Assembly: GCA_045290365.1 (NCBI GenBank)
Contig: CP145882.1
Span: 492,189 to 556,188 of the forward strand
Length of the DNA: 64,000 bases
Reading direction: 5' to 3'
DNA from: Candidatus Dasytiphilus stammeri
GTDB lineage: Bacteria > Pseudomonadota > Gammaproteobacteria > Enterobacterales > Enterobacteriaceae
The position numbers and the translations under genes are program-made. Positions 5,005-41,945 of the stretch are shown here, piece after piece. Under the pieces are notes generated by a model. That model had not been told where the DNA came from, searched no databases, and was given only the letters and a program-made list of their open reading frames with translations. Within the stretch, counting starts at the first letter, position 1. Each line of letters starts with the position of its first letter.

Positions 5005-6756
5005 TTATTTCAACCATTTTTTCCAAGGTAAAAACCATCTTTTGCGTTTAAAAATTTTGCTAGTATTTATTTTAGTAATGCGATCTTTAATTTTTTGCAG
5101 TAGACCAGGTTCATTATCGGCATTCCATTTCATTCCGGTTAATAATGGAATAGCATCATTCACATGGTTCACTATCCAAATATTAAATTTACCATTATGA
5201 ACTGCTTCGATAACATCTCTTTGCAAACATAAATTAGATAAATTGGTTCTGGGTATAATAACTCCTTGACTACCAGTTAATTTACGTTGATTGCAAATCT
5301 GAAAAAATCCCTCAATTTTTTCATTAATACACCCAATAGATTGTACATTGCCAAATTGATCTACTGATCCAGTAACAGCGATCTGCTGATCAATTGGTTG
5401 ACATGATAAAGCACTAATAATTGCACATAATCCTGCTAATGAAGCACTGTCACCATCTATTCTTAGGTAAGTTTGTTCAAAAACTAGTGATATGGAAAAT
5501 GGAAGGTGAGAGTCTAATTCTAAGGCAGCAATTAACCAAGATTGTATGATTATCATCCCCTTAGAATGAATATTTCCACCTAAATCCACTTTTCTTTCTA
5601 CATCCATTAATTCACCATCTCCATTATGTACAACACAACTAATACGTAATGGCTCTCCTAAAAGAGAAGGATAACCTGGTATTTCTATTACCGATAAACC
5701 ATTGATCTGTCCGATAACTTTTCCTTCAGTTTGAATAATTGTTTGACCAAGTAAAATTGACTCTCTTAAACGTGCGGCTAGATAATTTAACTGCCATTCT
5801 CTGGTTAATAAAGCACGTTGTAAACTTTCTCCATTCAGTTCTGATGAAGTACCATATTGTACTGATGAACCAAGTTGCATTTCAATCCAAACAGGACAAA
5901 GAGGTAAAAATTGTTGATTTCCTGTATAGCGTGCGGCGGCCTGAAATAAGACCGGCCAAAAATCTGCTGTAATGCGTGGTTTATTAGTTTTTAAAGCTAT
6001 CTGTGTTACCCATTGGCACCACATTAATACATTTTCTTCATTTAATACCTCTAATTCTTCTTCAAACTCACTGTAAATGCAAATGGAAGCTAACTTATGC
6101 TCCATCTCTCGAAATTCATCTAAGAGCTCCCTTTCACCAGTAAGAATTAGTTTAAAATATAATGGCATTGATGGAATACTCACAGGTAACGGTGTTTTTG
6201 TTAGTGATAACCAATCAAAGCGTTTTTGTATTAATATTTCTTTAATGCGGAACCATATTTTAGGTTGATCTAATAGGGCACGCAGTGCTAGTATTAGTAC
6301 CCCACCATTAGCACGATGTACTAAGCCAGGTTCTAGAGTAATTTGGTGCTTAAAAATCCGCACACATCCAAAGAGCTGCTCTGGAGTACTCCATTCAGAA
6401 TAGATTATTTCACCATTACTAGAAAAATTATCTTTTATAGAACGTGCTGGCTGCAAAATTATTGTGTCTTCTTGGATATGGTAGTGACCTCCTAGTAGAA
6501 TTTTTTCAGAAGTTTTTTGACGTGCCGAATTCGCAATCATAGAAAGATAATCAACATGTTCTGCACATTTAACTAACATCACGGGAATGGTGGCAGTGGA
6601 ATATTTTAATAGATCTTCTATCGCATTATTTAAACGAGGTTGAATATTATAAAAACATGTAGGATCCCCATTAAATTTAGATAAAAATAGATGTTGAAAT
6701 TTTGAAAGATCAGGTTGTAGCTCATACGATTTAAGTTTCTTATTCAAAGTCAGCAT
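5005..6756 (-). CDS. ycbZ: Lon-like (LonH/YcbZ family) protease
   Basis: The 583-aa ORF has a C-terminal Lon proteolytic domain with the serine motif IDGDSASLAG. It sits between fabA and ompA, exactly where E. coli ycbZ lies. Confidence 0.8.
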   Translation of the reverse strand: MLTLNKKLKSYELQPDLSKFQHLFLSKFNGDPTCFYNIQPRLNNAIEDLLKYSTATIPVMLVKCAEHVDYLSMIANSARQKTSEKILLGGHYHIQEDTIILQPARSIKDNFSSNGEIIYSEWSTPEQLFGCVRIFKHQITLEPGLVHRANGGVLILALRALLDQPKIWFRIKEILIQKRFDWLSLTKTPLPVSIPSMPLYFKLILTGERELLDEFREMEHKLASICIYSEFEEELEVLNEENVLMWCQWVTQIALKTNKPRITADFWPVLFQAAARYTGNQQFLPLCPVWIEMQLGSSVQYGTSSELNGESLQRALLTREWQLNYLAARLRESILLGQTIIQTEGKVIGQINGLSVIEIPGYPSLLGEPLRISCVVHNGDGELMDVERKVDLGGNIHSKGMIIIQSWLIAALELDSHLPFSISLVFEQTYLRIDGDSASLAGLCAIISALSCQPIDQQIAVTGSVDQFGNVQSIGCINEKIEGFFQICNQRKLTGSQGVIIPRTNLSNLCLQRDVIEAVHNGKFNIWIVNHVNDAIPLLTGMKWNADNEPGLLQKIKDRITKINTSKIFKRKRWFLPWKKWLK

Positions 6757-14885: not shown

Positions 14886-15870
14886 GATTATTTAGATTTA
14901 GCATATTAATTGTAAGTTTAAGTGCTGCTATCAAACTGCTTGGATTGGCTTTTCCAGTAGCCGCTAATTCCAAAGCGGTACCATGATCTACTGAGGTGCG
15001 TATAAAAGGCAATCCAAGAGTAAGATTCACAATCTGTCCAAATCCTTGAGATTTTAACACTGGTAATCCTTGGTCGTGATACATAGTTAAGATAACATCT
15101 GCGGCCTTGAAATATTTTTTTTGAAAGATAGTATCTGCTGGTAAAGGACCAGTAATTTTAAGGCCCTCTTGTCTTAAGATTTGTATGACAGGAATGATGA
15201 TATCTTGTTCTTCTCTACCTATATGTCCTCCTTCTCCTGCATGAGGATTAAGACCACATACAAATATGTGTGGTTTAGTAATTTTAAATTTATTTTGAAG
15301 CTCTTGATATAAAATAGTAATTACTTCCGATAGACTATCGTGTGTAATTGCATTAGGAACTTTTTTTAAAGGTAAGTGTGTTGTAGTTAGTGCGACACGT
15401 AATTCTCCCATAGCAAAGAGCATCACTCCTCTTTTTATATTAGAATGTTCAACCAAATATTCTGTATGACCAATAAAAGTTATTCCAGCTTCATTCATCA
15501 CTCCTTTATGTACTGGTCCAGTAATGATCGCTGAAAATTCACCATGTAAACATCCATTACAAGCCCGTTCTAAAGTTGAGAGAACATATTTACTATTATC
15601 AATACATAATTGACCTGCTTTAACTGGTTTAATTAAATCGATTTGCAGGATTTTTAGATGGCCCGGCCGGTGAAGTTGGGTAATTGGTTCAAATTGATAA
15701 TCATGTAAGATCAATGGTAAATTTAAAGCTAAAGCTCTTGAATGCATAAGTTCAGCAGAGGCACACACTACCAGTTCAATCGGCCAATTGTATTGAGCTA
15801 ATTGAATAACTATATCAGGACCTATTCCAGCCGGCTCGCCTGGTGTAATAATTACACGGTGATGATTCAT
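14875..15870 (-). CDS. pdxA: 4-hydroxythreonine-4-phosphate dehydrogenase
   Basis: It carries [22 protein letters not shown] and SVDHGTA. It overlaps rsmA by 11 nt and surA by 4 nt. Confidence 0.95.
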
Positions 15871-17135: not shown

Positions 17136-17387
17136 ACCTTAAATACCTTATTACTTAAAAGACAGGCGGGAGTGGGTAATAAGCTACTCAATTACATAAC
17201 ATATTATTTATATCAAATTATTCTAAACACTGTCAAACAAAAGTCTAATCATAATAACTCTCTGGGTAATATGAGATTAGTAATCTTGCGGATTTTATTT
17301 GATAATATATTATAATAAGGTACATGTTAAGATAAATTTAAAATAAACTGATCTGTCCAGTGTCAACCTGAATTGAGGTACCTCTCA

Positions 17388-18200
17388 ATGCATTTATTTG
17401 GAAAAACATTAGGATTATTTATAGGCCTGGCATCTGGAACTGGAATAGTGGGAGTGGTCGTTGGTCTATTTATAGGACATATCATTGATAAAACTCTCGA
17501 CTTCTCTGTAAAGATTAATTTTACTAACCAAAGTAGACGTCAAGAGCTATTTTATCGTACAACTTTTCAGATTGTTGGTCATATTAGTAAATGTAAAGGA
17601 AGAGTAACTGAAATTGATATTAAAAATGCCTTAAATTTAATGGATCACATCCAACTTTCTGGTGAAGAAAGAAAATTAGCACAACAAGCCTTTAGAGAAG
17701 GAAAGCATTTTAAATACCCATTACGTTCTAAATTACGAGAATTACATCAAATTTGCTTTGATCGATTTGATTTAATCAGAATGTTTCTTGACATTCAAAT
17801 TCAAACCGCATTGTCTGATGGTTTATTACATCCTAAAGAACGCAAAGTATTGCATATTCTGGCGGAAGAACTGGGAATTTCACAAATACAATTGGAACAA
17901 TTTTTACAGATGATAGAAAGAGAAATAGACGGAGTAAAGTCTTCTGCTACACAGAATTATGGACGTTATACATCTGAAACATTTACAGAGTTAGATGAGG
18001 CTTGTAAAGTTTTAGGAGTAAAAATCAGCGATGATTACGTTACTATCAAACGTGCGTGGCGTAGACGAATGAATGAATATCATCCTGATAAACTTTTAGC
18101 CAAAGGATTACCAACTAACCTGATGAAAATTGCCCAACAAAAAATTCAGGAAATTCAAAAAGCTTGGGAACTTATCAAAAAAATCCGCGATTTTAAATGA
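17388..18200 (+). CDS. djlA: Membrane-anchored DnaJ-like co-chaperone DjlA
   Basis: It has an N-terminal TM segment and FDLIRMFLDIQIQTALSDGLLHPKERKVLHILAEELGIS. A C-terminal J-domain carries EYHPDKL. The ATG at 17388 matches the E. coli start better than the track TTG at 17373. Confidence 0.92.
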   Translation: MHLFGKTLGLFIGLASGTGIVGVVVGLFIGHIIDKTLDFSVKINFTNQSRRQELFYRTTFQIVGHISKCKGRVTEIDIKNALNLMDHIQLSGEERKLAQQAFREGKHFKYPLRSKLRELHQICFDRFDLIRMFLDIQIQTALSDGLLHPKERKVLHILAEELGISQIQLEQFLQMIEREIDGVKSSATQNYGRYTSETFTELDEACKVLGVKISDDYVTIKRAWRRRMNEYHPDKLLAKGLPTNLMKIAQQKIQEIQKAWELIKKIRDFK

Positions 18201-18627
18201 TTATATCCAATTTAAATTGATTAATTATTAATCCCAATTAAGATTATACTATAATATTAATACTTTCATAGCATATGGAACTAGCAGTGATTAAATAGCA
18301 CTTAAATTTTAAACAACTGCCGAACCATTTTTAAATAACAAAAATAAACTGATTAATAATACCATTATTGGTATAGTTCTTCTCAAAATCCTGCTACCTT
18401 AATAATAAATTTAGATAAATCACTGCTTCCTAGATTACTACCTAGGCATAATTTACTAGAAGTAAATAAAATCTGAGCTCATAATATTCCTTGTAATCCA
18501 TATTGTGAAAATTACAATTTCTTCTTAAGCTATTGTAGAATGTAGCTAGCTAAATTTAATAAGATTACTTTAACTCTATCATTAATCTTTAGCAGATTAA
18601 TTTCTTGATAATTTAATTAAGGGTTAT

Positions 18628-19569
18628 ATGGATAACCATACAAGCGTACTTGTCGATGTAGCAGTGAATGCTCTGAATATTAAAGATCATGGAATATATA
18701 TTGATGGTACTTTCGGGCGTGGGGGACATTCTCGATTAATATTATCTCATTTATCGTCTCAAGGACAATTGTATGCTATTGATCGTGATCCTATAGCTGT
18801 AGCCGCTGGTAGGAGTATTATTGATTCAAGATTTACTATGATTCACGGAGTTTTTTCTAGTTTAGTTAATTATATCTCACCTAGAGGATTAATAGGTCGG
18901 ATTAATGGGATCTTATTAGATTTGGGATTATCATCACCCCAAATTGATAATGCTGAGCGCGGTTTTTCTTTTATGCAAGATGGACCACTAGATATGCGGA
19001 TGGATCCTACTCATGGCATATCAGCTAAAGAGTGGTTATTAGAATCTCAAGTAGAGGATATTGCTCTGGTATTAAAAAAATACGGAGATGAACGTTTTGC
19101 CCAACGCATTGCTCGTGCTATAGTTAAACGTAACAGCAGTAGTACTCAACCTATCACACGTACTAGCGACCTAGTATCAGTCATTAAGGCGGCGATCCCA
19201 TATAAAAAAAATTTTCATAAACATCCCGCAACTCGCTGTTTTCAAGCAATACGGATTTTTATCAATAATGAGTTAAATGAGCTTATGAAAGTATTACAAG
19301 GCACATTATTAACACTAGCTCCAGGAGGAAGATTAGTTGTAATTAGTTTTCATTCATTGGAAGATCGAATTGTAAAGCATTTTATTAGGAAGTATAGTCG
19401 CTCCTTTAGTGTTCCAAAAGGAATTCCATTGACTGTCAATCAAATAAAAGGTTTAGATTCTACACCTGAGTTAATAGCCATAGATAAAATAAAACCCAAT
19501 AAAATAGAAGTTGCAATTAACCCACGTGCCCGCAGTGCAATTCTTCGGATTGCCGAAAAAAGGATGTAA
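18628..19569 (+). CDS. rsmH: 16S rRNA (cytosine1402-N4)-methyltransferase
   Basis: It carries [36 protein letters not shown] and [11 protein letters not shown]. It is the first gene of the dcw cluster here. Confidence 0.96.
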
Positions 19570-19629
19570 TAATCTTTCTAAAAGATCCTAAATAATTTTA
19601 AGCAATTCTTTGTGGAACATATATACTAA

Positions 19630-19710
19630 ATATTAATTGTGGTCATTTTATTATCGGATCGCCGAATTCAAAGCATTGCTGAAAATTCGATAGTTTCTAT
19701 TTTTACGTAA
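19630..19710 (+). pseudogene. Possible relic of ftsL (very short, speculative)
   Basis: The frame at 19630-19707 reads ILIVVILLSDRRIQSIAENSIVSIFT*. The segment LSDRRIQSIAEN resembles the conserved FtsL C-terminal segment (E. coli LGDHSRVERIATEKL). It sits exactly where ftsL belongs. I had no statistical support for the match. Confidence 0.2.
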
Positions 19711-19828
19711 TTCATTTAGTGGTGAATACTCTGGATCTAAGAAAATAATTAGTGCCATGAAACTGGTATCTTACCTGATGTGAGGTAAGCCACGACCACT
19801 AAATCTAAATGAGTAAAGCTAAAAAGAG

Positions 19829-21328
19829 GTGAATTTATTGCGTAATTTACATGAGATATTGACACCTTGGGTGACTTCCGCTCCTAACCTTTTAATCAGA
19901 GAAATGACTCTGGATAGTAGGTTAGCCAAAATTGGAGATGTCTTCATAGCTATTAATGGAGATCGTGTGGATGGACGTTCTTTTATATCTCAAGCTATTG
20001 CTAATGGGGTCAAAGCGGTTATTGCTGAGGGCACACCTTATCAGAATGGCTCTATTGGTTATTTAGATAGGGTTCCGATCATTTATGTTAAAAATTTATC
20101 TCAGCAACTATCTGAAATAGCTGGACGTTTTTATGATCATCCAGGGAAAAAATTATGTTTGATTGGAGTAACCGGAACTAATGGTAAAACTACTACCACA
20201 CAATTATTAGCACAGTGGATAAAATTACTTGGTGAGAAGAGTGCTGTTATAGGAACTCTAGGAAATGGTTTATATGGTAACTTAACTCATCTAGAGAATA
20301 CCACTCCTTCAGCAGTGGATGTTCAACGATGGTTAAATTTTTTATGGAAAAAAGGTGCAAAAGTTGTAGCCATAGAAATTTCATCGCATGGACTTGTACA
20401 ACATCGAGTGGCTGCTATACAATTTGCCGCTGGTGTCTTTACCAATTTAAGTCGCGATCATCTTGATTATCACCTTAATATGGAAAATTATCAAATGGCC
20501 AAGTGGTCGCTGTTTTCTAAACATAGTACTAAATTAGCTATCATTAATGCTGATGATTATATAGGAAGGGCTTGGTTAAAGCGTTTACCAGAAGCTATAG
20601 GAGTCACCATTAAGAAAAAATATTGGTCATTATGTAATAATAGGCGCTATTGGCTAAAGGGACTAAGAGTGCGATACAATGAGGGTAGTACAAATATTTA
20701 CTTTAGATCTGTTTGGGGACATGGAGAAATCAATACTAATTTGATAGGGGATTTTAATGTGAGTAATCTATTGCTAGCGCTGACAACCCTTTTAGCCAAT
20801 GGATATCAGATAGATAGCTTAATAGCAACTAGCAATAAATTACAACCTATATGTGGTCGTATGGAAATATTTAAACTAAGAGGTCATGGAAAACCAACTG
20901 TTATTATAGATTATGCACATACTCCTGAAGCGCTGGAAAAATCACTACAAGCTGCCAGATTACACTGTCGCAGTAAGTTATGGTGCATTTTTGGTTGTGG
21001 TGGTGATCGTGATAAAGGAAAGCGCTCCATTATGGGTAGAATTGCTGAAAAATTTTCTGATAAATTAGTTATTACTAGTGATAATCCACGTCATGAAGAT
21101 CCTAACGCTATTATTAAAGATATTTTAAGTGGATTACAGTATATCAAAAATGTCAAGATAATGCATGATCGTAGTATTGCAGTGACAGATACAATTATGA
21201 GAGCACAGGAAGATGATGTAATTTTAATAGCTGGGAAAGGACATGAAAATTATCAGATAATAGGAAATCATCGTATGAATTTTTCTGATCGCACAATAGT
21301 GGCTCGTATGTTAGGAATAAAAGAATGA
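19829..21328 (+). CDS. murE: UDP-MurNAc-tripeptide synthetase (meso-DAP adding)
   Basis: It carries [31 protein letters not shown] and [11 protein letters not shown]. It has a GTG start and its TGA stop overlaps the murF ATG. Confidence 0.96.
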
Positions 21329-22689
21329 TCCCTATCTCATTAATTCAATTAGCCAAAATTATTGATGGTGAACTAATTGGTAGTGATATTGAGATTTGTA
21401 AGGTTATTACTGATACGCGTCAAAGTACTGAGGAAGCTCTTTTTATTGCTTTGATCGGAAACAATTTTGATGCCCATGATTTTGTAGAAGAAGCTATAAA
21501 TAATAATAAAATTATTGCAGTTATAGTAAGTCGGATATTAGTTATTAAAGTACCACAAATTCTTGTAAAGAACACTAGTATTGCTCTCGGAAACCTCGCT
21601 AAATGGCTTAGACAACAGCTCCATACCAAAGTTATTGCATTAACAGGATCTTCAGGTAAAACTACTGTTAAAAATATGTTAACCGCTATTTTAAAACAGT
21701 GTGGTAACACTCTATCTACAATGGGAAATATGAATAATCATATTGGTGTCCCATTAACGCTGTTGCAATTAAATAAAGAATATATTTATACGGTGATTGA
21801 AATGGGTGCTAATCATCCTGGAGAAATTGATTATGCGGTACAATTAACTAACCCGGAAGTGGTCTTAATTAATAATATTACACTATCACATCTCCATGGT
21901 TTTGGTTCAATATTAGGAGTGGCAAAATCTAAAGGAGAAATTTTTACTGGTTTAGTGGAAAATGGTATAGCTGTGATAAATGCTGATAGTCATTATTGGT
22001 CGTATTGGCGTCATTTATTAGGTAATCAATTAGTATGGAGATTTTCTCTGACTCCTAAGCATGAAAGTAGCTTTTTTGCAACCAATATTATTTTAAATAT
22101 TACCAGTACACAATTTACTCTTAATACGCCAAAAGGGTGTATTGAAGTCTTCTTACCATTACTAGGTAAGCATAATATTGCTAATGCATTAGCGGCAGCA
22201 ACTTTAGCTTCAGCAGTTGATATATCTCTCCAAGACATTAAGACTGGATTAGCTCACTTAAAAGCGCTACCAGGTCGGAGTTATCCTATACTAATAGATA
22301 GAAATAAATTATTAATTGATGATAGCTACAATGCGAATGTAGGCTCAATGAAGGCAGCCGCTTATACATTATCAAAAATGCCAGGTTATCGAATTATGGT
22401 AGTAGGCGATGTAGCGGAATTAGGTAATCATTCTGTTAGATATCACCAAATGATTGGTTGGATAATGCGTTTAGCTGAGATTGATAAAGTGATTAGCATA
22501 GGAATACTGAGTAAAAATATTAGTGATCTGAACCATGAGGGTGAGCATTTTTATGATCAAGCTAAATTGATTCAACGTCTCAAAATACTAATGGAAAAAT
22601 ATAAAAATGTTACTATTTTAATTAAAGGTTCCCGGGTTGCTAAAATGGAAAAGATAGTACATAACTTACAGGAAAAATACTCATGTTAA
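21325..22689 (+). CDS. murF: UDP-MurNAc-pentapeptide synthetase
   Basis: It carries [19 protein letters not shown] and DDSYNAN. Its position lies between murE and mraY. Confidence 0.94.
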
Positions 22690-22736
22690 GGTTGCTCATC
22701 TTGCCTTACTATTTTTAGGTTTTATGGTATTGTTGT

Positions 22737-23777
22737 ATGGATGATATTTTTTCAGATATCGTCTGGAGAGCGATTTTCAGCCTATTTACCGCATTATTTA
22801 TTTCCATGTGGATGGGATCATATTTAATTGTATGGTTAAATAAATTTAAGATAATTCAAATTGTACGTAATTATGGACCAAAATCTCACGCTTGCAAGCA
22901 AGGCACTCCTACTATGGGTGGAGTTATTATTCTTGTAGCAATCAGCATTGCAGTATTATTATGGGCTAATCTTTCTAATCCATATATTTGGTGTGTATTA
23001 TTGGTTTTAGTAAGTTACGGTCTTATTGGATTTATTGATGATTATAGAAAAGTTACAAGCCAAAATAGCCAAGGATTAATTGCTTTTTGGAAATATTTTT
23101 GGCAATCAATAATAGCACTATTAATTAGTCTGATCTTATATCATATGGGTAAAAGTACAGTTGCCACGCAACTGGTAGTACCATTTTTTAAAGATTTAAT
23201 CCCACAAATGGAGATGACGTATTTATTATTAACTTATTTTGTAATAATAGGAACCAGTAATGCTGTAAATTTAACAGATGGTTTAGATGGATTAGCTATT
23301 ATGCCAACTTTATTGGTTGCGGCTGGTCTAGCGTTCATTTCATGGTTAACTAGTAATGTTGATATGGCGGGTGAATTGCATATTCCTTATTTACCTTATG
23401 CTGGAGAACTAATGGTTTGTTGTACTGCCATTATTGGTGCCAGCTTAGGTTTTTTATGGTTTAACACCTACCCAGCTCAACTATTTATGGGAGATGTGGG
23501 ATCTTTAGCCTTAGGTGGTATATTAGGAACAATTGCTGTCCTGTTAAGGGAGGAGTTATTATTATTGTTAATGGGTGGTATATTTGTTATCGAGACACTA
23601 TCGGTAATTTTACAAGTAGGATCATTTAAATTACGTGGTCAGAAAATTTTTCTGATGGCTCCTATTCATCACCATTATGAATTAAAAGGGTGGCCTGAGT
23701 CTAGGATTATAGTAAGGTTCTGGATCATATCGTTGATATTATTATTGATTAGTTTAGCAACCTTCAAGGTACGTTAA
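22737..23777 (+). CDS. mraY: Phospho-MurNAc-pentapeptide translocase
   Basis: It carries [41 protein letters not shown] and [12 protein letters not shown]. See the finding on the in-frame TAG upstream of this start. Confidence 0.93.
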
Positions 23778-25100
23778 ATGAATGACTATTGCAATAAAAA
23801 CATTGTCATAATTGGACTAGGAATTACCGGAATGTCCTGTATAAATTTTTTTTTATCTCGTGGAGTAATCCCTAGAGTTATGGATACACGTCTTTATCCT
23901 CCAGAAAGAGAAAAACTACCTAATTTTATTGAGTGCTGTTTAGGTTCTTTAAATAAAGAATGGTTACTGTATGCGGATATGATAATTGTTAGCCCTGGAA
24001 TGTCTATGCATCCTTTATTAATTAAATCCGCGAGAACTGGTATAGAAATAATTAGTGATATTGAATTATTTTGTCGTGAAGCACGTGCTCCAATTATTGC
24101 TATAACTGGTACCAATGGCAAAAGTACCGTATCTGTTTTGATTAGCGAGATGGCACGATCTTGTGGTTTGGTCACTGGTGTGGGTGGCAATATTGGACTA
24201 CCAGCTCTAAATTTATTACAACAATCTTACCAATTATATGTTTTAGAACTTTCTAGTTTTCAACTCGAAGCTACTTATAGTCTACATACAAGGGCAGCTA
24301 CAATCTTAAATCTTAGTGAAGATCATAGAGATTATTATTTTAATAAATTTTATAATTATAAAATGGCAAAATTACGTATTTACGACTATGCTGAAGTATG
24401 TATATTCAATGCGGAGGAAAAAAATACAAAACCCATAATACTTAATTCTAACCAAAAATCTGTAAGTTTTGGTATTCATAAAGGAGATTATCATCTAAAT
24501 TTTAATAACGGTAATATTTGGATGTTGGTAAATGGTACTAAAATCTTAAATACCGCAGAAATGAAATTAATTGGACAACATAATTATACTAATGCACTAG
24601 CAGCGTTAGCCATGGCAGATGTAATTGGATTATCTAAAACTTGTAGTATTCAAGCATTAAAAAATTTTACTGGTTTACCTCATTGTTTTCAGTTAGTTTT
24701 TAAAAATAAAGGAATATCTTGGATTAATGATTCGAAGGCTACTAATGTATGCAGTACTATAGCAGCACTTAGAGTTAGTAACTTATTAGTACGCGGAATG
24801 ATTCATTTACTAGTCGGGGGAAATAGTAAATGTGCTGATTTAAAAAATCTATCATCTTATTTGCAAGATGATAGATTGCAGCTTTATTGCTTTGGGCGTG
24901 ACAGAAAAAAATTTGCAAAATTACGACCTAATCCTAGTATTCTCACAAACACAATGGTTGAAGCAATGGAAGATCTTGCTAAGAAGGTCAAACCAGGTGA
25001 TTTAGTTTTACTTTCTCCAGCATGTTCTAGTAAAGACCAATTTAAAGATTTTGCTCATAGAGGCAGAATCTTTACACAACTTGCTAAAATATTAGGATAA
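23778..25100 (+). CDS. murD: UDP-MurNAc-L-Ala--D-Glu ligase
   Basis: It carries IIGLGITG, ITGTNGKSTV and NLSEDH. Its start codon abuts the mraY stop. Confidence 0.94.
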   Translation: MNDYCNKNIVIIGLGITGMSCINFFLSRGVIPRVMDTRLYPPEREKLPNFIECCLGSLNKEWLLYADMIIVSPGMSMHPLLIKSARTGIEIISDIELFCREARAPIIAITGTNGKSTVSVLISEMARSCGLVTGVGGNIGLPALNLLQQSYQLYVLELSSFQLEATYSLHTRAATILNLSEDHRDYYFNKFYNYKMAKLRIYDYAEVCIFNAEEKNTKPIILNSNQKSVSFGIHKGDYHLNFNNGNIWMLVNGTKILNTAEMKLIGQHNYTNALAALAMADVIGLSKTCSIQALKNFTGLPHCFQLVFKNKGISWINDSKATNVCSTIAALRVSNLLVRGMIHLLVGGNSKCADLKNLSSYLQDDRLQLYCFGRDRKKFAKLRPNPSILTNTMVEAMEDLAKKVKPGDLVLLSPACSSKDQFKDFAHRGRIFTQLAKILG

Positions 25101-25223
25101 TGAATGCATAAAACTCTGTCTATCTAGTAATACGGTATTATTGAATGCTATTTATAATTTTTATAAGGTGTACAGAATACGGTGATTTAATTAATAATAG
25201 AGCTAGGATGCGAGGTATTATCA

Positions 25224-26294
25224 TTGATTCCGTCTAGGCGCTTAATAGTCATGGCTGGTGGAACCGGTGGCCATATTTTTCCCGGCATTACGATTGCACA
25301 ATATCTTATGAATCAGGGTTGGAAGATTCTTTGGCTAGGAACTCCCGATCGATTAGAAGCTACCTTAGTACCACAACATGGTATTGAAATTGAATTTATT
25401 CGTATACAAGGCTTACGTGGTAAGGGAATTAAGGGATTTTTAAACAGTTGTCCAAAATTTATCAGTGCAGTACGTAAAGCTTCTCAAATTATAAAATTAT
25501 GGCATCCTAATGTAGTACTGGGAATGGGAGGTTATGTTTCTGGTCCGGGTTGTTTAGCTGCTTGGAGATATGGTATTCCAATAGTTATACATGAACAAAA
25601 TAGTATTGCCGGATTAACTAATCGATGGATCGCCAAAATTGCTAAAATCACACTACAAGCATTTCCAGGAACCTTCAAGAATGCTGTTCTAGTAGGAAAT
25701 CCTATACGCCATAAATTGCATACGTTACCTTCTCCAGAAGTGCGTTTTGTCTGCAGAAAACAATTTCCTCTTCGTATTCTAGTACTAGGCGGTAGTCAGG
25801 GATCACACATTTTAAATTTTACTATCCCAAAATTAGCAATTATTATGGGCAGTAAAATTATAATATGGCATCAAGTTGGCAAACAAGCCTTTGATACTGT
25901 TATGAAATATTATCAACCAGTATATCATACTAAATATCGACTCAATGAATTTATAGAAGATATAGCATTAGCCTATACTTGGGCTGATATAGTAATATGT
26001 CGTTCAGGTGCCATGACGGTCAGTGAAATTGCAGTAGTTGGATTGCCGGCCATTTTTGTCCCTTTTAAACATAATGACAGACAGCAATATTGGAATGCTT
26101 TACCTTTGGAAAGGATTGGTGCTGCTAAAATTTTAGAACAATCAAAATTTACCGCACCATTGGTTGCAGAAATATTGGAAAAATTGGATCGAGTAACATT
26201 ATTAAATATGGCAGTATCAGCGCGTTCTTTAGCTATTCGTGATGCTACTGAACGAATTGCCGCAATAATATGTAAATCTGCCACAAAAGCCTAA
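25224..26294 (+). CDS. murG: Lipid II synthase (UDP-GlcNAc:lipid I GlcNAc transferase)
   Basis: It carries [25 protein letters not shown] and [32 protein letters not shown]. Confidence 0.95.
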
Positions 26295-26358
26295 AATAGT
26301 TTTCGAAGATTATCTAAACTATAAAAGACTCACCTAAAAAAGCTGCGTAAAATAGTAA

Positions 26359-27807
26359 ATGAATACTCTAAAATTAGCACCATATTATATAGTTCCTGGA
26401 AAAAATATACACTTTGTAGGTATTGGTGGAGCAGGAATGGGCGCTTTAGCTTACTTATTAGCTAAGGAAGGCTATCAAATTAGTGGTTCCGATCTAGTCC
26501 CCAATACCATGACACAACTTCTGATATCTTTAGGAGCAAAAATATATTTTTATCATCATCCAGCTAACATTAAAAATGCTAGTATAGTGATTTTATCAAC
26601 AGCAATTTCTAATGACAATGTAGAAATTTTGGCAGCTTACAAAGCACGTCTCCCGGTAATTAGAAGAGCAGAAATGTTAGCCGAACTGATGCGTTTTCGT
26701 TACGGAATAGCTATAGCCGGAACACATGGTAAAACTACAACTACAGCTATGATTGTCAGCATCTATGATGAAGCTGGATTAGATCCCACGTTTATTAATG
26801 GTGGATTAGTAAAAGCAGCTGGTACGAATGCTCGGAGGGGCAAAAGTAAATATCTGATTGTAGAAGCTGATGAAAGTGATGCTTCTTTTATACATTTACA
26901 ACCTATGATAACTATTGTTACCAACATTGAAGCAGAACATCTCGATTACTATCAAGGTAATTTTGAAAATCTCAAGAAAACTTTTATGAATTTTTTACAT
27001 AATTTACCTTTTAATGGCAGGGCGATAATATGTCTTGACGATCAAGTGATTCGTCAGATGATACCTCATATAAAACGTAAAATTATAACATATGGCTTCA
27101 ATAAAGAAGCGGATATATGTATTAAAGATTATGAACAACATGGAATCAAAGGACATTTTTCGATTATTCGCAACTCGATACCAAAATTATCCGTAATCTT
27201 AAATGCACCAGGCCGTCATAATGCGCTTAATGCTGCCGCAGCAGTAGCATTGGCTACTCAAGAGGGTATTAATGATAAGATAATTTGTCATGCTCTAGAA
27301 AATTATCCGGGAACCACACGTCGTTTTGATTTGCTAGGTGAATTTGATTTAGAAAATGTTAATGGTACAATAGGGAAGGCATTGTTAATAGATGATTATG
27401 GACATCATCCTAATGAAGTGGAGGTAACTATCCAAGCGGTGAGAGCGAGTTGGCCAGATAAAAGGATTATTATGGTTTTTCAACCACATCGTTATACGCG
27501 GACACGTGATCTTTATAATGATTTCGTTAAAGTACTGTCTCAGGTAGATATTCTATTACTATTAGAAGTCTATCCAGCCGGTGAACAAACTATACCTGGA
27601 ATCAATAGTGATGCATTATGTAGTACTATTAGGGAACAAGGAAAAATACATCCTATATTAGTCTGCGAAAACCATGATTTACCTAAGATCCTTGCTCCAG
27701 TATTAGCGGATAATGATGTTATTCTTACACAAGGAGCAGGAAATATTGGAAATATTGCTCATAATCTAGCTAAAATTAAATTAAATCCAGAGATCAATAA
27801 TGATTGA
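26359..27807 (+). CDS. murC: UDP-MurNAc--L-Ala ligase
   Basis: It carries [20 protein letters not shown] and DDYGHHP. Confidence 0.95.
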
Positions 27808-28720
27808 TAAGGTAGCTGTATTACTAGGTGGTAATTCTGCCGAAAGAGATGTTTCTTTGCGATCTGGTTCAGCAATATTGGTTGGTTTAAAAAATGCTGG
27901 GATTGATGCATATGCAATAGATGTAAGATATTTCTCAGTAATGAGTTTAAAAAAAAAAGGATTTAACAAAGTTTTTATGGCACTTCATGGAAGAGGAGGA
28001 GAAGATGGTATCATCCAGGGGGTGCTAGATTTTATGGAACTTCCTTATACAGGAAGTAAAGTTCTAGCTTCGGCTATTGCCATTGATAAATTGCGTACTA
28101 AATGGTTGTGGAAAGGTATGGGTTTACCAGTGGCTTCTTGGGTAACGGTAAAACAAGAGGATTGCAAACCATATTTGAGCACAACTCTAAGAGAACGTGT
28201 AAGAAATTTATCAATGCCAGTAATAGTAAAACCTAGTAAGGAGGGTTCCAGTATAGGAATAACTAAGGTTAATTATCTTCAAGAACTAGATGTGGCTTTA
28301 AATACCGCATTTTATTATGATAATACAGTATTAGTAGAAAAATGGTTAAGTGGTCCCGAATATACCGCAGTTATTTTAGGAGATAGTGTTTTTCCTACAA
28401 TTAGAATTCAATATTCCGGGAATTTTTATGATTATCAAGCAAAATATTTTTCACAAGATACCAAATATTTATGTCCAAGCGGTTTATCAATAGTTCAAGA
28501 AGCTAATTTAAAAAAATTGGTATTAAAAGCATGGAGCGCTTTAGGCTGTACAGGTTGTGGTCGTGTAGACATTATGCTAGATAATGATGATCATTTCTAT
28601 CTCCTCGAAGTAAATACCTCTCCTGGTATGACTAGTCAAAGTTTAGTTCCTATAGCAGCGCTATCGGTTGGAATAAATTTTTCGCAGCTAGTTAAGTGTA
28701 TCTTAGATCTTGCTGATTAA
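27800..28720 (+). CDS. ddlB: D-alanine--D-alanine ligase
   Basis: It carries [35 protein letters not shown] and [10 protein letters not shown]. It contains an in-frame A10 tract at 27949-27958. Confidence 0.95.
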
Positions 28721-28912
28721 AAGAGATTTAAAATGGTATATAGTTGATAACATGATGATCAGATCAATAAAAGTACTTTTAAATGCATGAAATCAGTATA
28801 AATTTTTATAGAGACCTGAAATTAATTTTCAGCAAAATGCTCTATAGTGTACCTATTATAACTTAATTATAGAATCTTATGTAAGAGAACATCAGATAGG
28901 TGTTAAATTTTG

Positions 28913-29413
28913 CTAATTATTTTTATTCTTTATATTTATTTTAGCTAAAGCTGCCAATTTTTCTAATGCAGCTTTGATGTTATCCGGACTTTTCATTGCA
29001 ACCTGACGTAACATAGCTGCACTTTTATTACTTAAAGTTCTATATAACATAATATTTTCTGTATGCTCTGGTAAAATCTTTCGGTCATGTGTTAGTCGTT
29101 CCCATGATGGATTTATATAAAAATTGATAGATACTAATGAAGGTAATATTTTAGATCTTAAAATATTAATTAAACTGTGTTGTTCATAAAGTAATCTTTT
29201 CATCCATTTAGCATTTGCTGTTTCAAGTATTAAGGTATTATGACGAAGATTAGCAACCCGGCACCAAGGGTTAAAATATGAAGGAAGTATACTTTTTACT
29301 GCACGATCTAAATTAATCAGTATCATCGCTCTACGTTGTAGAAAATTTAGTATACTGTGCTGTTTAGCATCATCAAAAATCTTTCTAATAGGATATAAAT
29401 TACTATAGCGCAT
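28913..29413 (-). CDS. DUF721/DciA-like protein (putative replicative-helicase loader)
   Basis: The 166-aa ORF is divergent from secA. The core PWCRVANLRHNTLILETANAKWMKRLLYEQHSLINILRSKILPSL fits my recollection of the DciA/DUF721 N-terminal domain, which has a buried Cys-Arg-Val, then a strand, then 'A.W..RLRYE...L...LR'. The call rests on memory of the family pattern, not a search. Confidence 0.6.
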   Translation of the reverse strand: MRYSNLYPIRKIFDDAKQHSILNFLQRRAMILINLDRAVKSILPSYFNPWCRVANLRHNTLILETANAKWMKRLLYEQHSLINILRSKILPSLVSINFYINPSWERLTHDRKILPEHTENIMLYRTLSNKSAAMLRQVAMKSPDNIKAALEKLAALAKINIKNKNN

Positions 29414-29590
29414 AATGTCTTCCCGTCATCGATAGTATTGATTAGGATATCAAAGATAATTAATAATCTTATAAAAATTCCGTCTTTATAAGATTTATAA
29501 ATCTATCAAAAAAAACATAGGTAATTATTATTAATTACAGTAATTTATAATAATTATTATCAAACTATATAATAAAGAGATTGGATTTTT

Positions 29591-32272
29591 ATGTTATTAA
29601 AATTTTTTACTAAAATTTTTGGTACTAGAAATGATCGTATACTTGATCGCATGAATCAACTGGTAGATACAATTAATCTACTAGAAAATAAATTTAGTCA
29701 ACTATCTAATAAAGTACTAAAGGAACAAACGAATCTATTTCGTTTACGTTTAGAAGCGGGAGAAAAGTTAGATAATTTGATTCCAGATGCTTTTGCTACA
29801 GTACGTGAAGCTAGCAAACGGGTTTTTAATATGCGTCATTTTGATGTTCAGTTACTGGGTGGAATCGTATTACATAATCGTTGTATTGCTGAAATGCGTA
29901 CTGGTGAAGGGAAAACCTTGACCGCGACATTACCAGCATACTTAAATGCTCTTACCGGAAAAGGTGTACATATAGTTACTGTTAATGATTATCTCGCTAA
30001 GCGAGATGCTGAGATTAATCGTCCTTTATTTGAATTTCTGGAACTTACCGTTGGCATAAACTTACCAGAAATGTCTACTGCCCAAAAGCAAGTGGCTTAT
30101 GCTGCTGATATTACTTATGGAACTAATAATGAATATGGATTTGATTATCTGCGGGATAATATGATTTTTAATCAAAAAGAACGTGTCCAACGCAAGTTAT
30201 ATTATGCATTGGTTGATGAAGTAGATTCCATACTTATTGATGAAGCACGCACACCTTTAATTATCTCGGGACCTGTGGAGAATAGTTCTGAGCTTTACAT
30301 TCGAGTAAATAATCTTATTCCAAAATTAATTAGACAAGATAAAGAAGATTCGAAGAGCTTCAAAGGTGTTGGACATTTCTTTGTAGATGAAAAATCGCGT
30401 CAAGTTTACTTGACAGAACGTGGTCTAATTTTAATAGAAGAGTGTTTGGTTAAAGAAGGTATTATGAATCAAGGTGAATCACTATATTCATCTTATAATA
30501 TAAGACTAATGCATCATGTTACAGCAGCTTTACGTGCTCATACATTATTTTTTCATAATATAGATTATATTGTAAAAAATGGAGAAATTATTATTGTTGA
30601 TGAACATACAGGTCGTGCTATGTCTGGGAGACGCTGGTCTGATGGTTTACATCAAGCAATAGAAGCTAAAGAAGGGGTACAGATCCATAGTGAAAACCAG
30701 ACCTTAGCTTCGATTACTTTTCAGAATTATTTTAGACTTTATGAAAAATTAGCAGGAATGACCGGCACTGCTAATACAGAAGCATTTGAATTTACTTCTA
30801 TTTATAAATTGGATACCGTTGTAATTCCTACTAATCGGAAAATGATACGTACTGATTTACCAGATTTAGTTTATATAACTGAAAAAGAAAAAATTAATGC
30901 CATTATTCAAGATATCAGAAAACGTACGGCTAATGGTCAACCTGTATTGGTAGGTACTATTTCAATTGAAAAATCAGAAATAATTTCTAGAGAATTAACT
31001 GATTCTGGTATTCTTCATAATGTATTAAATGCTAAATTTCATGCCTATGAAGCAGATATAGTAGCACAAGCTGGTCAGCCAGGAAAAGTAACTATTGCTA
31101 CTAATATGGCGGGACGAGGTACAGATATTGTATTAGGAGGAAATTTACCGTCGGAAATTTCTAAAAAAAAACAACCAGAAGATCTTAAAAATATTAAGAA
31201 TGCTTGGCAAATTCGCCATAATGCTGTAGTTAATGCAGGAGGATTACATATTATCGGAACGGAACGTCATGAATCTAGAAGGATTGATAATCAGCTTAGG
31301 GGGCGATCAGGAAGACAAGGAGATCCTGGGTCTTCTAGATTTTATCTTTCTATGGAAGATACTTTAATGCGTATTTTTGCCTCTGATCGATTATCTAAGA
31401 TCATGCGGAAAATAGGAATCCGATCTGGTGAGGCTATAGAACACCCTTGGGTTACTAAGGCTATTGCTAATGCACAGCGTAAGGTTGAAATTCGTAACTT
31501 TGAAATTCGTAAACAGTTATTGGAATATGATGATGTAGCTAATAATCAACGTCAGGCTATTTATGCACAGCGTAATGAATTACTTGAATCACCAGATGTT
31601 AGTGAAATTATTATTACCATATATGAAGAGGTTTTTAGAAATATTCTGAATAGCTATATTCCCTTCCAATCTATAGATGAAATGTGGAATATTACTAGTT
31701 TAAAAGAACATTTAAAAATTAATTATGATATAGATTTACCGATTGAAGAATGGATCAAAGATAATATCTTTATTTACGAGCAATTAATTGAGCGAATCAT
31801 TTTAAATATAAAAAATATATATCAGCAAAAAAGAAAATGTATTGGAATTGAAGCCATAAGTAATTTTGAAAAAAATTTAGTATTACAAACCTTGGATTGT
31901 TTATGGAAAGAACATCTAGCTGCTATGGATTATCTACGTCAAGGTATTCACTTACGTGGTTATGCGCAAAAAGATCCAATACAAGAATATAAGCGTGAAT
32001 CCTTCACGATGTTTTCTACTATGCTAGAAACAATGAAATATGAAATTGTTAGTATATTATGTAACATTAAGGTGGATCTCAACCAAGGATTAGGATTAAA
32101 TCCTACAATAACTAGTACTAGTAGTAGTAGTAATCAACATCTTACTGAATCTCAACTTAGAGCATCTACATCTAAGAATAATGAGGCGTATAAAATCGGT
32201 CGCAATGATTTATGTCCATGTGGTTCTAATAAAAAATATAAGCGATGTCATGGTCGTGTTCAGTTAATTTAA
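29591..32272 (+). CDS. secA: Preprotein translocase ATPase SecA
   Basis: The 893-aa ORF contains [38 protein letters not shown] and the C-terminal zinc finger [14 protein letters not shown]. Confidence 0.98.
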
Positions 32273-32436: not shown

Positions 32437-33044
32437 TCATTTTTGTTCAGCTAAGGCAAGAGATAAATAATATTGATGTAACCTCTTAATTTTTAAAATC
32501 CACATTTCTTTTGATCCATTATTATCAATGACATCATCTGCAATAGCAAGTTTATCTTCTCTTGTAGCTTGCAGAGCAATGATTTTTTCAGCTTGTTGAC
32601 GATTGACCTGGTCACGTAACATAGTCCTAATTAACTGTGTTTCACGATCTACATCAACTACTAATACACGTTGAGCCAATGTATAAATTTTATTTTCTAC
32701 TAATAATGGCACTACCCAGAGACACCACCCCGATCTGCTATTAGCCAATTGAAGGTTAGTTTCATGATCAATTATAGGATGAAGTAAATTATTTAACCAA
32801 ATTTTCTCTTTTGCTGAATAAATAATTATTTGGCGTAATTTAGCTCGATTCAGAGTTCCATCTGGTTTCAAAATACTATTACCAAATTTTTTTTTATTGC
32901 AAAGAGTGCTGGTTTTCCGGGTTCGACGATTTGGCGAGAGATTACATCAGCATCTACTACATCAACCCCTAATTTAGCAAATTCTTGAGCTACAGTAGTC
33001 TTGCCACTGCTAATTCCACCTGTTAAAGCAACTTTATATGGCAT
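32437..33044 (-). pseudogene. coaE: Dephospho-CoA kinase, interrupted by a -1 frameshift in a poly(A) tract
   Basis: The ATG at 33044 gives [53 protein letters not shown].., including the P-loop. This frame runs into a TGA shortly after the A9 tract at 32887-32895. The track ORF 32437-32871 (..KPDGTLNRAKLR...WVVPLLVEN..DDVIDNNG) is the rest of CoaE in the adjacent frame. One extra A would join the two as ..[17 protein letters not shown]... Confidence 0.85.
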
Positions 33045-36102: not shown

Positions 36103-36178
36103 AGGGGCGTAGTTCAATTGGCAGAGCACCGGTCTCCAAAACCGGATGTTAAGGGTTCAAGTCCCTTCGCCCCTGCCA
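36103..36178 (+). tRNA. trpT: tRNA-Trp (anticodon CCA)
   Basis: The sequence AGGGGCGTAGTTCAATTGGCAGAGCACCGGTCTCCAAAACCGG...GGTTCAAGTCCCTTCGCCCCTGCCA folds as a cloverleaf and closely matches E. coli tRNA-Trp. The CCA end is encoded. Confidence 0.95.
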
Positions 36179-38932: not shown

Positions 38933-39009
38933 GCACCCGTAGCTCAATTGGATAGAGCGTTGCCCTCCGAAGGCAGAGGTCTCAGGTTCAAATCCTGTCG
39001 GGTGCGCCA
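38933..39009 (+). tRNA. argX: tRNA-Arg (anticodon CCG)
   Basis: The sequence is GCACCCGTAGCTCAATTGGATAGAGCGTTGCCCTCCGAAGGCAGAGGTCTCAGGTTCAAATCCTGTCGGGTGCGCCA. It is the first gene of an argX-hisR-leuT-proM type cluster. Confidence 0.93.
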
Positions 39010-39054
39010 TTTTATTTGGTAGATAAAATCAAGAATATGATATTATATATGTAT

Positions 39055-39131
39055 GGTGGCTATAGCTCAGTTGGTAGAGCCCTGGATTGTGGTTCCAGTT
39101 GTCATGGGTTCAAATCCCATTAGCCACCCCA
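39055..39131 (+). tRNA. hisR: tRNA-His (anticodon GTG, with encoded G-1)
   Basis: The sequence is GGTGGCTATAGCTCAGTTGGTAGAGCCCTGGATTGTGGTTCCAG...CCCATTAGCCACCCCA. Confidence 0.93.
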
Positions 39132-39147
39132 ACATAATGATTTCATA

Positions 39148-39236
39148 GCGAAGATGGCGGAATTTGGTAGACGCGCTAGCTTCAGGAGCTAGTTTCTCTA
39201 TAAGATGTGAGGGTTCAAGTCCCTCTCTTCGCACCA
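39148..39236 (+). tRNA. leuT: tRNA-Leu (anticodon CAG), long variable arm
   Basis: The sequence is GCGAAGATGGCGGAATTTGGTAGACGCGCTAGCTTCAGGAGCTAG...GGTTCAAGTCCCTCTCTTCGCACCA. Confidence 0.9.
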
Positions 39237-39258
39237 TTTATAATTATATATATTTAAA

Positions 39259-39335
39259 CGGCGAGTAGCGCAGCTTGGTAGCGCAACTGGTTTGGGACCA
39301 GTGGGTCAGAGGTTCAAATCCTCTCTCGCCGACCA
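39259..39335 (+). tRNA. proM: tRNA-Pro (anticodon TGG)
   Basis: The sequence is CGGCGAGTAGCGCAGCTTGGTAGCGCAACTGGTTTGGGACCAGTGGGTCAGAGGTTCAAATCCTCTCTCGCCGACCA. Confidence 0.93.
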
Positions 39336-41111: not shown

Positions 41112-41945
41112 ATGCAGTTTTCGAAAATGCATAGCCTTGGTAACGATTTTATGATCGTTGATGCTATCACACAAAATATTGATATTTCACCTAATCTCAT
41201 TTTAAAATTAGCGGATCGACGTAGAGGTATTGGATTTGATCAATTACTTTTAGTTGAATCAACAGATAATCCAAACTTTGACTTTCACTATCGTATATTT
41301 AATGCTAACGGTGATGAAGTTGAACAATGTGGAAATGGAGCCCGCTGTTTTGCACGTTTTGTTCTTATAAAGAAATTAACTACAAAAAATACCCTTCGGG
41401 TGAGCACCAATAAAGGTAATATGGTGCTTAAGATTATCAATCATGAGCAGATTTGTGTAGAAATGAATGAACCTAATTTTTTACCAACTAAAATACCATT
41501 TATTACTCATAAGAAAAAAAAACAATACCAAATGGTAGTGGGAGAACAACTGGTAATTTTTGGGGTAGTATCAATTGGTAATCCCCATTGTGTAATTAAG
41601 GTAGATAATATAAAAAATGCCCCGGTGGAAGAGCTGGGTTCAATCTTAGAAAAACATGAAATGTTTCCTGAGCATGCTAATATTGGTTTTATGGAAGTTA
41701 TTAATCGGGCACATATTAGATTGCGCGTATTTGAGCGAGGGGTTGGTGAAACTCCTGCATGTGGAAGTGGGGCTTGTGCAGCAGTTGCCATAGGTATACA
41801 GCAAGGTTTATTAGATAATGATGTACAGGTTAATTTCCCAGGAGGAAAATTACAGATTTTCTGGACAGGAGTAGGACATGCATTATTTATGACAGGACCT
41901 GCTATACATGTTTATGATGGGGTTTTATGTATCAAAAAACCATAA
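41112..41945 (+). CDS. dapF: Diaminopimelate epimerase
   Basis: It carries [13 protein letters not shown], the catalytic Cys motif [11 protein letters not shown] and the second catalytic Cys motif [12 protein letters not shown]. Confidence 0.96.

Follow-up and report, generated by a model that had tools for sequence, protein, structure and literature searches.

We analysed a 64-kb stretch of the chromosome of Candidatus Dasytiphilus stammeri (600,652 bp), hereafter the window, which contains the division and cell wall (dcw) gene cluster of this bacterium, and found that the cluster has kept every gene for peptidoglycan precursor synthesis and lost every fts gene. Taken as a whole, the data are best explained by loss of the fts genes in place, maintenance of a minimal wall-building module, and a mode of division that is independent of both FtsZ and peptidoglycan, a reading to which we attach a probability of roughly 0.7. 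A supplementary table already in print contains these facts implicitly; the point about division is new for Dasytiphilus, and the general phenomenon has been reported in other symbionts.

Dasytiphilus is a bacteriome symbiont of Dasytinae beetles involved in tyrosine provisioning, and 20 genomes, complete or draft, of 437-601 kb have been published in a study whose main and supplementary text mention neither division nor the fts genes (PMC11191362). The cells are coccoid or short rods, 2-4 µm across (PMC5031591), and extracellular transmission via the gut and over the egg surface has been proposed. The AT-rich composition of the window (GC ~33%) goes with a host-restricted bacterium of reduced genome.

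Gene content of the dcw cluster

Genes were identified by calling open reading frames (ORFs) and matching them to NCBIfam equivalog profiles with curated cutoffs, and gene order was compared with the annotation of Escherichia coli K-12 and with the intact cluster of Erwinia rhapontici. Eight genes, from rsmH to ddlB, are full length, score above their cutoffs and stand in canonical order, as the initial annotation of this DNA had described them, and the mur, mraY and ddl genes are collinear on one strand as in E. coli K-12 and Erwinia. All lie on the plus strand. The block begins with rsmH (18628-19569), encoding the 16S rRNA m4C1402 methyltransferase (TIGR00006, 369 bits, cutoff 154; 64% identity to Erwinia), and continues with murE (19829-21328; NF001123, 732.6 bits, cutoff 586), murF (21325-22689; NF008041, 641 bits, cutoff 551), mraY (22737-23777; TIGR00445, 461.6 bits, cutoff 192), murD (23778-25100; TIGR01087, 365 bits, cutoff 212), murG (25224-26294; TIGR01133, 342.5 bits, cutoff 250), murC (26359-27807; TIGR01082, 557 bits, cutoff 335; product identical to GenBank WWP01064.1) and ddlB (27800-28720; NF002378, 393 bits, cutoff 243). 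The murG gene has a TTG start, and its product aligns with that of Erwinia from residue 1. As in E. coli, the start of murF overlaps the stop of murE by 4 nt and the start of ddlB overlaps the end of murC by 8 nt. An intact secA (29591-32272; NF009538, 1235.6 bits; product identical to WWP01067.1) closes the block on the right. A promoter and terminator scan of 17300-29700 returned 66 promoter-like sites against 66.4 by chance and carries no information on operon structure.

Where the fts genes would be expected, there are only short spacers. The ftsL-ftsI slot (19570-19828) is reduced to 259 bp of non-coding DNA with a conserved Shine-Dalgarno region just before murE, the ftsW slot (25101-25223) to 123 bp, and the ftsQ-ftsA-ftsZ-lpxC slot (28721-28912) to 192 bp; these lengths agree to the base with those given initially. 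In addition, mraZ is absent. In E. coli and Erwinia it immediately precedes rsmH; here a 427-bp spacer between djlA and rsmH (18201-18627) takes the position that mraZ and the dcw promoter have in free-living relatives. Searches of the whole window by tblastn (E<10) with MraZ, FtsL, FtsI, FtsW, FtsQ, FtsA, FtsZ and LpxC of Erwinia rhapontici revealed no pseudogene remnant and gave no match even at E<1, so that neither the fts genes that are interleaved with the mur genes in a canonical cluster nor any remnant of them was detected. The spacers hold no ORF of note, the small ORFs they do contain are not conserved among strains, and an Rfam scan of the window found no regulatory RNA in them.

Among close strains of Dasytiphilus the spacers can be aligned with many indels, and the conserved parts are the ribosome-binding regions before murE and murG. 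In the 259-bp spacer, aligned to strains Dsp02 and Dbic, the indels are not multiples of three and conservation is confined to the 3' AAAGAGGT region; the 123-bp spacer is poorly conserved except for the GAGGT ribosome-binding site before murG; and the 192-bp spacer has a mean column identity of 54% among strains and has shrunk to only 12 bp in a strain of the Listrus clade.

Within the cluster, 7/7 peptidoglycan-precursor genes have been kept and 6/6 fts genes lost, a split that is non-random with respect to function (Fisher exact p = 5.8e-4). This much of the earlier claim that the pattern 'is not random decay' stands. The claim had also drawn on the vacant positions of zapD, matP, sulA, zapB, ftsN and xerC elsewhere in the window, and comparison of the window annotation with the E. 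coli K-12 order confirms that these genes are indeed absent from their expected positions. However, the same intervals have also lost mutT, yacG, yigA, yigB, menA, rraA, glpF, glpX, uspD and yiiQRS, none of which is a division gene, and we therefore rejected these gaps as specific evidence: they reflect the ~88% genome-wide gene loss, that is, wholesale genome reduction rather than a targeted loss of division genes. At one of these positions dapF and uvrD (41112-43918), which in E. coli are separated by yigA-xerC-yigB, share 19 nt (41927-41945); the match of UvrD to its profile covers only positions 6-646 of 720, its C-terminus apparently being shortened.

The right boundary of the third slot is formed by a 166-aa ORF on the minus strand (28913-29413), which we considered as a possible novel division factor and rejected. 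It belongs to the DciA/DUF721 family (Pfam PF05258, E 1.2e-11), its product is 45% identical (E 4e-36) to that of the Erwinia ORF directly after lpxC, and the gene occupies the same place in at least 30 Enterobacterales loci, including those of Pectobacterium, Brenneria, Yersinia, Edwardsiella, Xenorhabdus and Serratia symbiotica. It is thus an ordinary, ancestral neighbour that many Enterobacterales carry between lpxC and secA. This member of an ancestral helicase-loader family has been retained beside secA under purifying selection (dN/dS 0.28-0.30); among replication genes, the published table of 20 genomes described below lists dnaB and neither dnaA nor dnaC. Its counterparts lie at 15130-15609 (-) in locus L003 (Dsp02), 15021-15503 (-) in L077 and ~15110-15426 in L004 (Dbic), where the gene is in two fragments.

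Absence of the divisome beyond the window

For gene content outside the window we relied on Supplementary File 2 of PMC11191362, which covers all hierarchical orthogroups of the 20 genomes, both KEGG-assigned and unannotated. This table contains no ftsZ, ftsA, ftsI, ftsW, ftsK, ftsE, ftsX, ftsQ, ftsB, ftsL, ftsN or zipA; no min, rod, mreB or mrd entry and no 'Cytoskeleton' category; no Tol-Pal entry (the string 'tol' matched only cutA); and no entry for amidase, endopeptidase, carboxypeptidase, murein, lpoB, lpx, lpt, alr, dnaA or dnaC. The sole 'fts' strings in it are those of ftsH, ftsJ (rlmE) and ftsY, together with the hflK and hflC descriptions that name the FtsH protease. What it does list is mrcB, encoding the class A penicillin-binding protein (PBP) PBP1B, which is the only peptidoglycan synthase in the table, together with murJ, uppS, bamA, mltG and murI, of which mltG and murI occur mainly in the Dasytastes clade. 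Hence ftsZ and other division genes are missing genome-wide while the precursor genes persist, as in other reduced endosymbionts that have no divisome. With respect to the D-amino acids of the wall, alanine racemase (alr/dadX) is found in none of the 20 genomes and murI in some only, and ddlB and murF are nonetheless conserved.

The loss is also old. A MurD search returned 90% identity with CP145881.1 (isolate Dsp02), 87% with CP145883.1 (Dbic) and 58% with the distant Dasytiphilus Lsp00, and the loci nearest to the window are CP145881.1, CP145883.1 and JBAPLR010000003.1. The fts-less gene order is shared by three other species-level lineages of Dasytiphilus (L003, L004 and L077), including a Listrus-clade strain at dS > 1 from the window, which indicates that the fts-less state is of long standing.

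Selection on the precursor genes

Estimates of dN/dS (Nei-Gojobori, window versus Dsp02, Dbic and Lsp00) were between 0.16 and 0.29 overall for murE, murF, mraY, murD, murG, murC and ddlB. By gene, the ranges were 0.21-0.25 for murE, 0.19-0.29 for murF, 0.16-0.20 for mraY, 0.18-0.25 for murD, 0.23-0.30 for murG, 0.24-0.28 for ddlB and 0.22-0.34 for rsmH, while the housekeeping genes secA, def and fmt gave 0.15-0.20, 0.15-0.30 and 0.18-0.26, respectively. The low values of the mur genes hold even against the Listrus-clade strain (dS > 1, up to ~1.3). Purifying selection acts on the mur genes as strongly as on secA, def and fmt.

Two rival accounts of the cluster can be weighed at this point. 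The fts genes might have moved to another locus of the same chromosome, as the initial annotation had itself proposed as an alternative, and the Dasytiphilus genome is rearranged relative to E. coli, with djlA adjoining rsmH and deoB adjoining hslV. Yet no divisome entry occurs in the 20-genome table, which takes in three genomes (590-601 kb) of the Dasytastes clade, and from this it follows that the genes were lost rather than relocated; the few fts-named rows it does contain are not divisome genes, the layout recurs in the three other lineages, and the positions of ftsN, zapB, zapD, matP, sulA and xerC in the window are empty too. Relocation is therefore very unlikely, to the point that we give it almost no credence, and the fts genes were lost where they stood. 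Alternatively, the mur genes could be functionless leftovers in a cell that makes no peptidoglycan, the pattern being a mere order of gene decay. It may be argued in support that four of the 20 strains are already without the peptidoglycan module, that alr is absent everywhere and murI from many strains, and that the table has no LpoB, which in E. coli activates PBP1B. Nevertheless, all seven genes are full length with scores above equivalog cutoffs, and their dN/dS is that of essential housekeeping genes over dS values of up to ~1.3. Moreover, as far as the rows of both mrcB and murE can be read, the strains that lack one also lack the other, suggesting that the two belong to one functional module. 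On this evidence we consider decay of a useless pathway quite improbable.

Route of loss

In a survey of 81 Enterobacterales dcw loci, in which truncated contigs were set aside and fts genes compared on full-length loci, the only full-length loci without fts genes were those of Dasytiphilus and that of Candidatus Malihini olakiniferum (isolate 25, JBHKFL010000008.1, 2826-16434; L062), whose dcw cluster is partly decayed. In the Malihini locus mraZ is frameshifted, ftsI lies in at least five fragments in different frames, ftsA is in fragments, the ftsW slot holds a remnant of ~150 bp, and ftsQ, ftsZ and ddlB are gone; rsmH, murE, murF, mraY, murD, murG, murC and lpxC are intact. Genomes of the Malihini bicoloratus group have been reported to have lost or disabled almost every gene for cell shape and division and to keep many peptidoglycan pathways (PMC12360927). 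The Malihini locus is an intermediate stage of the same process in an independent lineage.

By this comparison, the genes of the Dasytiphilus cluster first became pseudogenes where they stood, and deletions then eroded them as far as the neighbours under selection, the endpoint being short AT-rich spacers in which only the ribosome-binding site of the next mur gene is kept. The genes mraZ, ftsL, ftsI, ftsW, ftsQ, ftsA, ftsZ and lpxC were lost before the known Dasytiphilus lineages diverged, and their loss is part of the genome-wide disappearance of the divisome, the elongasome, the Min and Tol-Pal systems, amidases and lipopolysaccharide (LPS) synthesis. Like Dasytiphilus, Malihini is an Enterobacterales symbiont of insects (a co-symbiont of Hawaiian Pariaconus psyllids) that has lost division and shape genes and largely kept its peptidoglycan and membrane pathways (PMC12360927). 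It differs in being at an early stage, with pseudogene fragments of ftsI, ftsA, ftsW and mraZ still visible, lpxC intact and ddlB lost, whereas Dasytiphilus, with its completely eroded slots, has retained ddlB and given up LPS synthesis, and its fts-less state is ancient and clade-wide.

Wall building and division

Together with the mur genes of the window, murA, murB, uppS, murJ and the class A PBP1B, all encoded elsewhere in the genome, may constitute a minimal wall-building module that operates without a cytoskeleton. PBP1B alone could both polymerize and cross-link the wall without cytoskeletal guidance, which would be expected to yield an isotropic sacculus, and such a sacculus fits the coccoid cells of 2-4 µm. 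Four Dasytiphilus strains have lost the peptidoglycan pathway entirely (PMC11191362), and according to the published table these strains are also without FtsZ. Since these sister strains dropped the whole module and still propagate, division in the clade, on this indirect and comparative evidence, neither uses FtsZ nor depends on peptidoglycan. Strains without peptidoglycan include the symbionts of D. plumbeus and D. virens. Most likely the cells split in an L-form-like way, driven by the growth and mechanics of the membrane, and/or with help from the host. The wall probably serves to keep the envelope intact, as in the proposed passage through the gut and over the surface of the egg, and not to form septa.

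Several points weigh against this reading. The mode of fission is something we infer, as nothing in the sequence displays it. The peptidoglycan pathway is not autonomous, alr being listed in no strain and murI in some; neither an alanine racemase nor an amidase or endopeptidase is in the table, so that activities supplied by the host could come into play. If PBP1B built a closed sacculus, MltG alone, with no amidase or endopeptidase, could hardly split it, so either the wall is incomplete or hydrolases from outside are needed. Finally, the genome-wide absences rest on a published KEGG/OrthoFinder table and not on the raw 600,652-bp chromosome, and such a table may omit orphan genes of single strains and is blind to very divergent small proteins such as FtsL, FtsB, FtsN or LpoB.

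One other proposal is that division and wall remodelling are run by the host, the beetle supplying the missing activities and setting when and where the symbionts split; its contribution could comprise peptidoglycan hydrolases (PGRP amidases, lysozymes), D-alanine or even horizontally acquired bacterial genes. The table, with Ddl, MurF and PBP1B conserved and no amidase, endopeptidase, carboxypeptidase or alanine racemase, speaks for this proposal, and host-encoded peptidoglycan enzymes in mealybugs and aphids are precedents cited by the Dasytiphilus authors, who nevertheless state that a host contribution is not judgeable (PMC11191362). Fission in the peptidoglycan-less strains, which have no wall to remodel, argues against it, and we regard it as possible but on balance doubtful. 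A further reading, in which a real sacculus is made with PBP1B as the single class A PBP and with MurJ, in a cell that has no FtsZ, no MreB, no SEDS/class B PBP pair and no peptidoglycan hydrolase of its own but MltG, and depends for growth and splitting on host-supplied hydrolases and D-amino acids, we consider unlikely. If it were true, the beetle would be in direct control of symbiont division, and Dasytiphilus would exemplify in nature an 'aPBP-only' bacterium with a wall, mirroring the 'SEDS/bPBP-only' state of Chlamydiae.

The initial annotation had favoured yet another model, the Chlamydiae, where lipid II feeds a transient septal peptidoglycan ring that is required for fission in the absence of FtsZ. 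There is a likeness: in the window, and across the genomes by way of the published table, FtsZ is missing but lipid II synthesis is conserved in full, under purifying selection, and like Dasytiphilus the Chlamydiae are intracellular, retain murA-G and mraY, and have no dedicated alanine racemase listed. However, the chlamydial signature consists of MreB/RodZ, SEDS proteins plus class B PBPs, FtsK/FtsQLB and an amidase (AmiA), and includes no class A PBP; the 'peptidoglycan-intermediate' state has been defined as an MreB-guided combination of SEDS and class B PBP from which class A PBPs are missing (PMC5814848). The Dasytiphilus set is the opposite. No MreB/RodZ cytoskeleton appears in the 20-genome table (as distinct from the raw chromosome), nor does any other chlamydial component, ftsI, ftsW and mrd genes all being absent, and the sole synthase present is the class A PBP encoded by mrcB. 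Nor does the comparative evidence uphold the claim that division 'still needs peptidoglycan': the four FtsZ-less strains persist without any peptidoglycan pathway, so that peptidoglycan is dispensable in some Dasytiphilus strains, unlike in the ring-dependent Chlamydiae. A Chlamydia-like mechanism thus seems to us highly improbable, and division independent of both FtsZ and peptidoglycan remains the reading we prefer.

Comparison with other symbionts and with L-forms

FtsZ-less symbionts that keep peptidoglycan genes are already known, namely Malihini and Candidatus Endolissoclinum faulkneri. The latter, a tunicate symbiont, resembles Dasytiphilus in having no ftsZ and no detectable pseudogene of it and in keeping most peptidoglycan genes; its cells are irregular, and one strain is missing dnaA as well (PMC3851785). 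It differs in being an alphaproteobacterium with a 1.5-Mb genome in which rod-shape genes and other genes for peptidoglycan synthesis and shape are kept, whereas in Dasytiphilus nothing remains of divisome or elongasome and the one PBP left is of class A. Dasytiphilus is therefore a more extreme and more ancient case, set apart by keeping only the class A PBP branch.

At this genome size FtsZ is normally kept. Buchnera, Blattabacterium and Baumannia, which like Dasytiphilus are bacteriome symbionts (0.6-0.7 Mb) with peptidoglycan genes and with some division accessories lost, all retain FtsZ, and Buchnera and Blattabacterium also most of the core divisome. Baumannia of the glassy-winged sharpshooter has kept FtsZ and MinCDE and lost FtsA, FtsQBLWIN and mrcB; Dasytiphilus, by comparison, has kept no divisome component and has kept mrcB.

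L-form proliferation, said to have been described by Leaver et al. in 2009 and by Mercier et al. in 2013, is reportedly an FtsZ-independent fission driven by membrane synthesis. The mode that we propose for Dasytiphilus would likewise be FtsZ-independent, and the membrane lipid genes fabA and plsB are retained in the window. L-forms, however, have no wall, whereas most Dasytiphilus strains keep the wall-building module. Dasytiphilus offers a natural test case both for a class A PBP acting alone and for division without known cytokinetic machinery, and comparison with its peptidoglycan-less sister strains could tell what the wall contributes to integrity, transmission and host signalling apart from any role in division.

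Other features of the window

Apart from the dcw region, the coaE gene (32437-33040, -) is interrupted by a frameshift in a poly(A) tract of nine residues (32887-32895), with the P-loop N-terminus in one frame and the remaining 144 aa in another. The frameshift is common to Dsp02, while in Dbic the gene is in a single frame. Transcriptional slippage, which has been described in other endosymbionts, is a candidate means of restoring the frame. Beside fabA lies a gene for a 583-aa LonB-like protease (5005-6756, -), retained despite the genome size of 0.6 Mb and the positional counterpart of E. coli ycbZ, for which the family scores are weak (AAA_32, 1.3e-11; Lon_C, 5.5e-8). The Rfam scan of the window returned five tRNAs and no other family; four of the tRNA genes stand directly after rho (38933-39332) and one after aroE (36103-36175).

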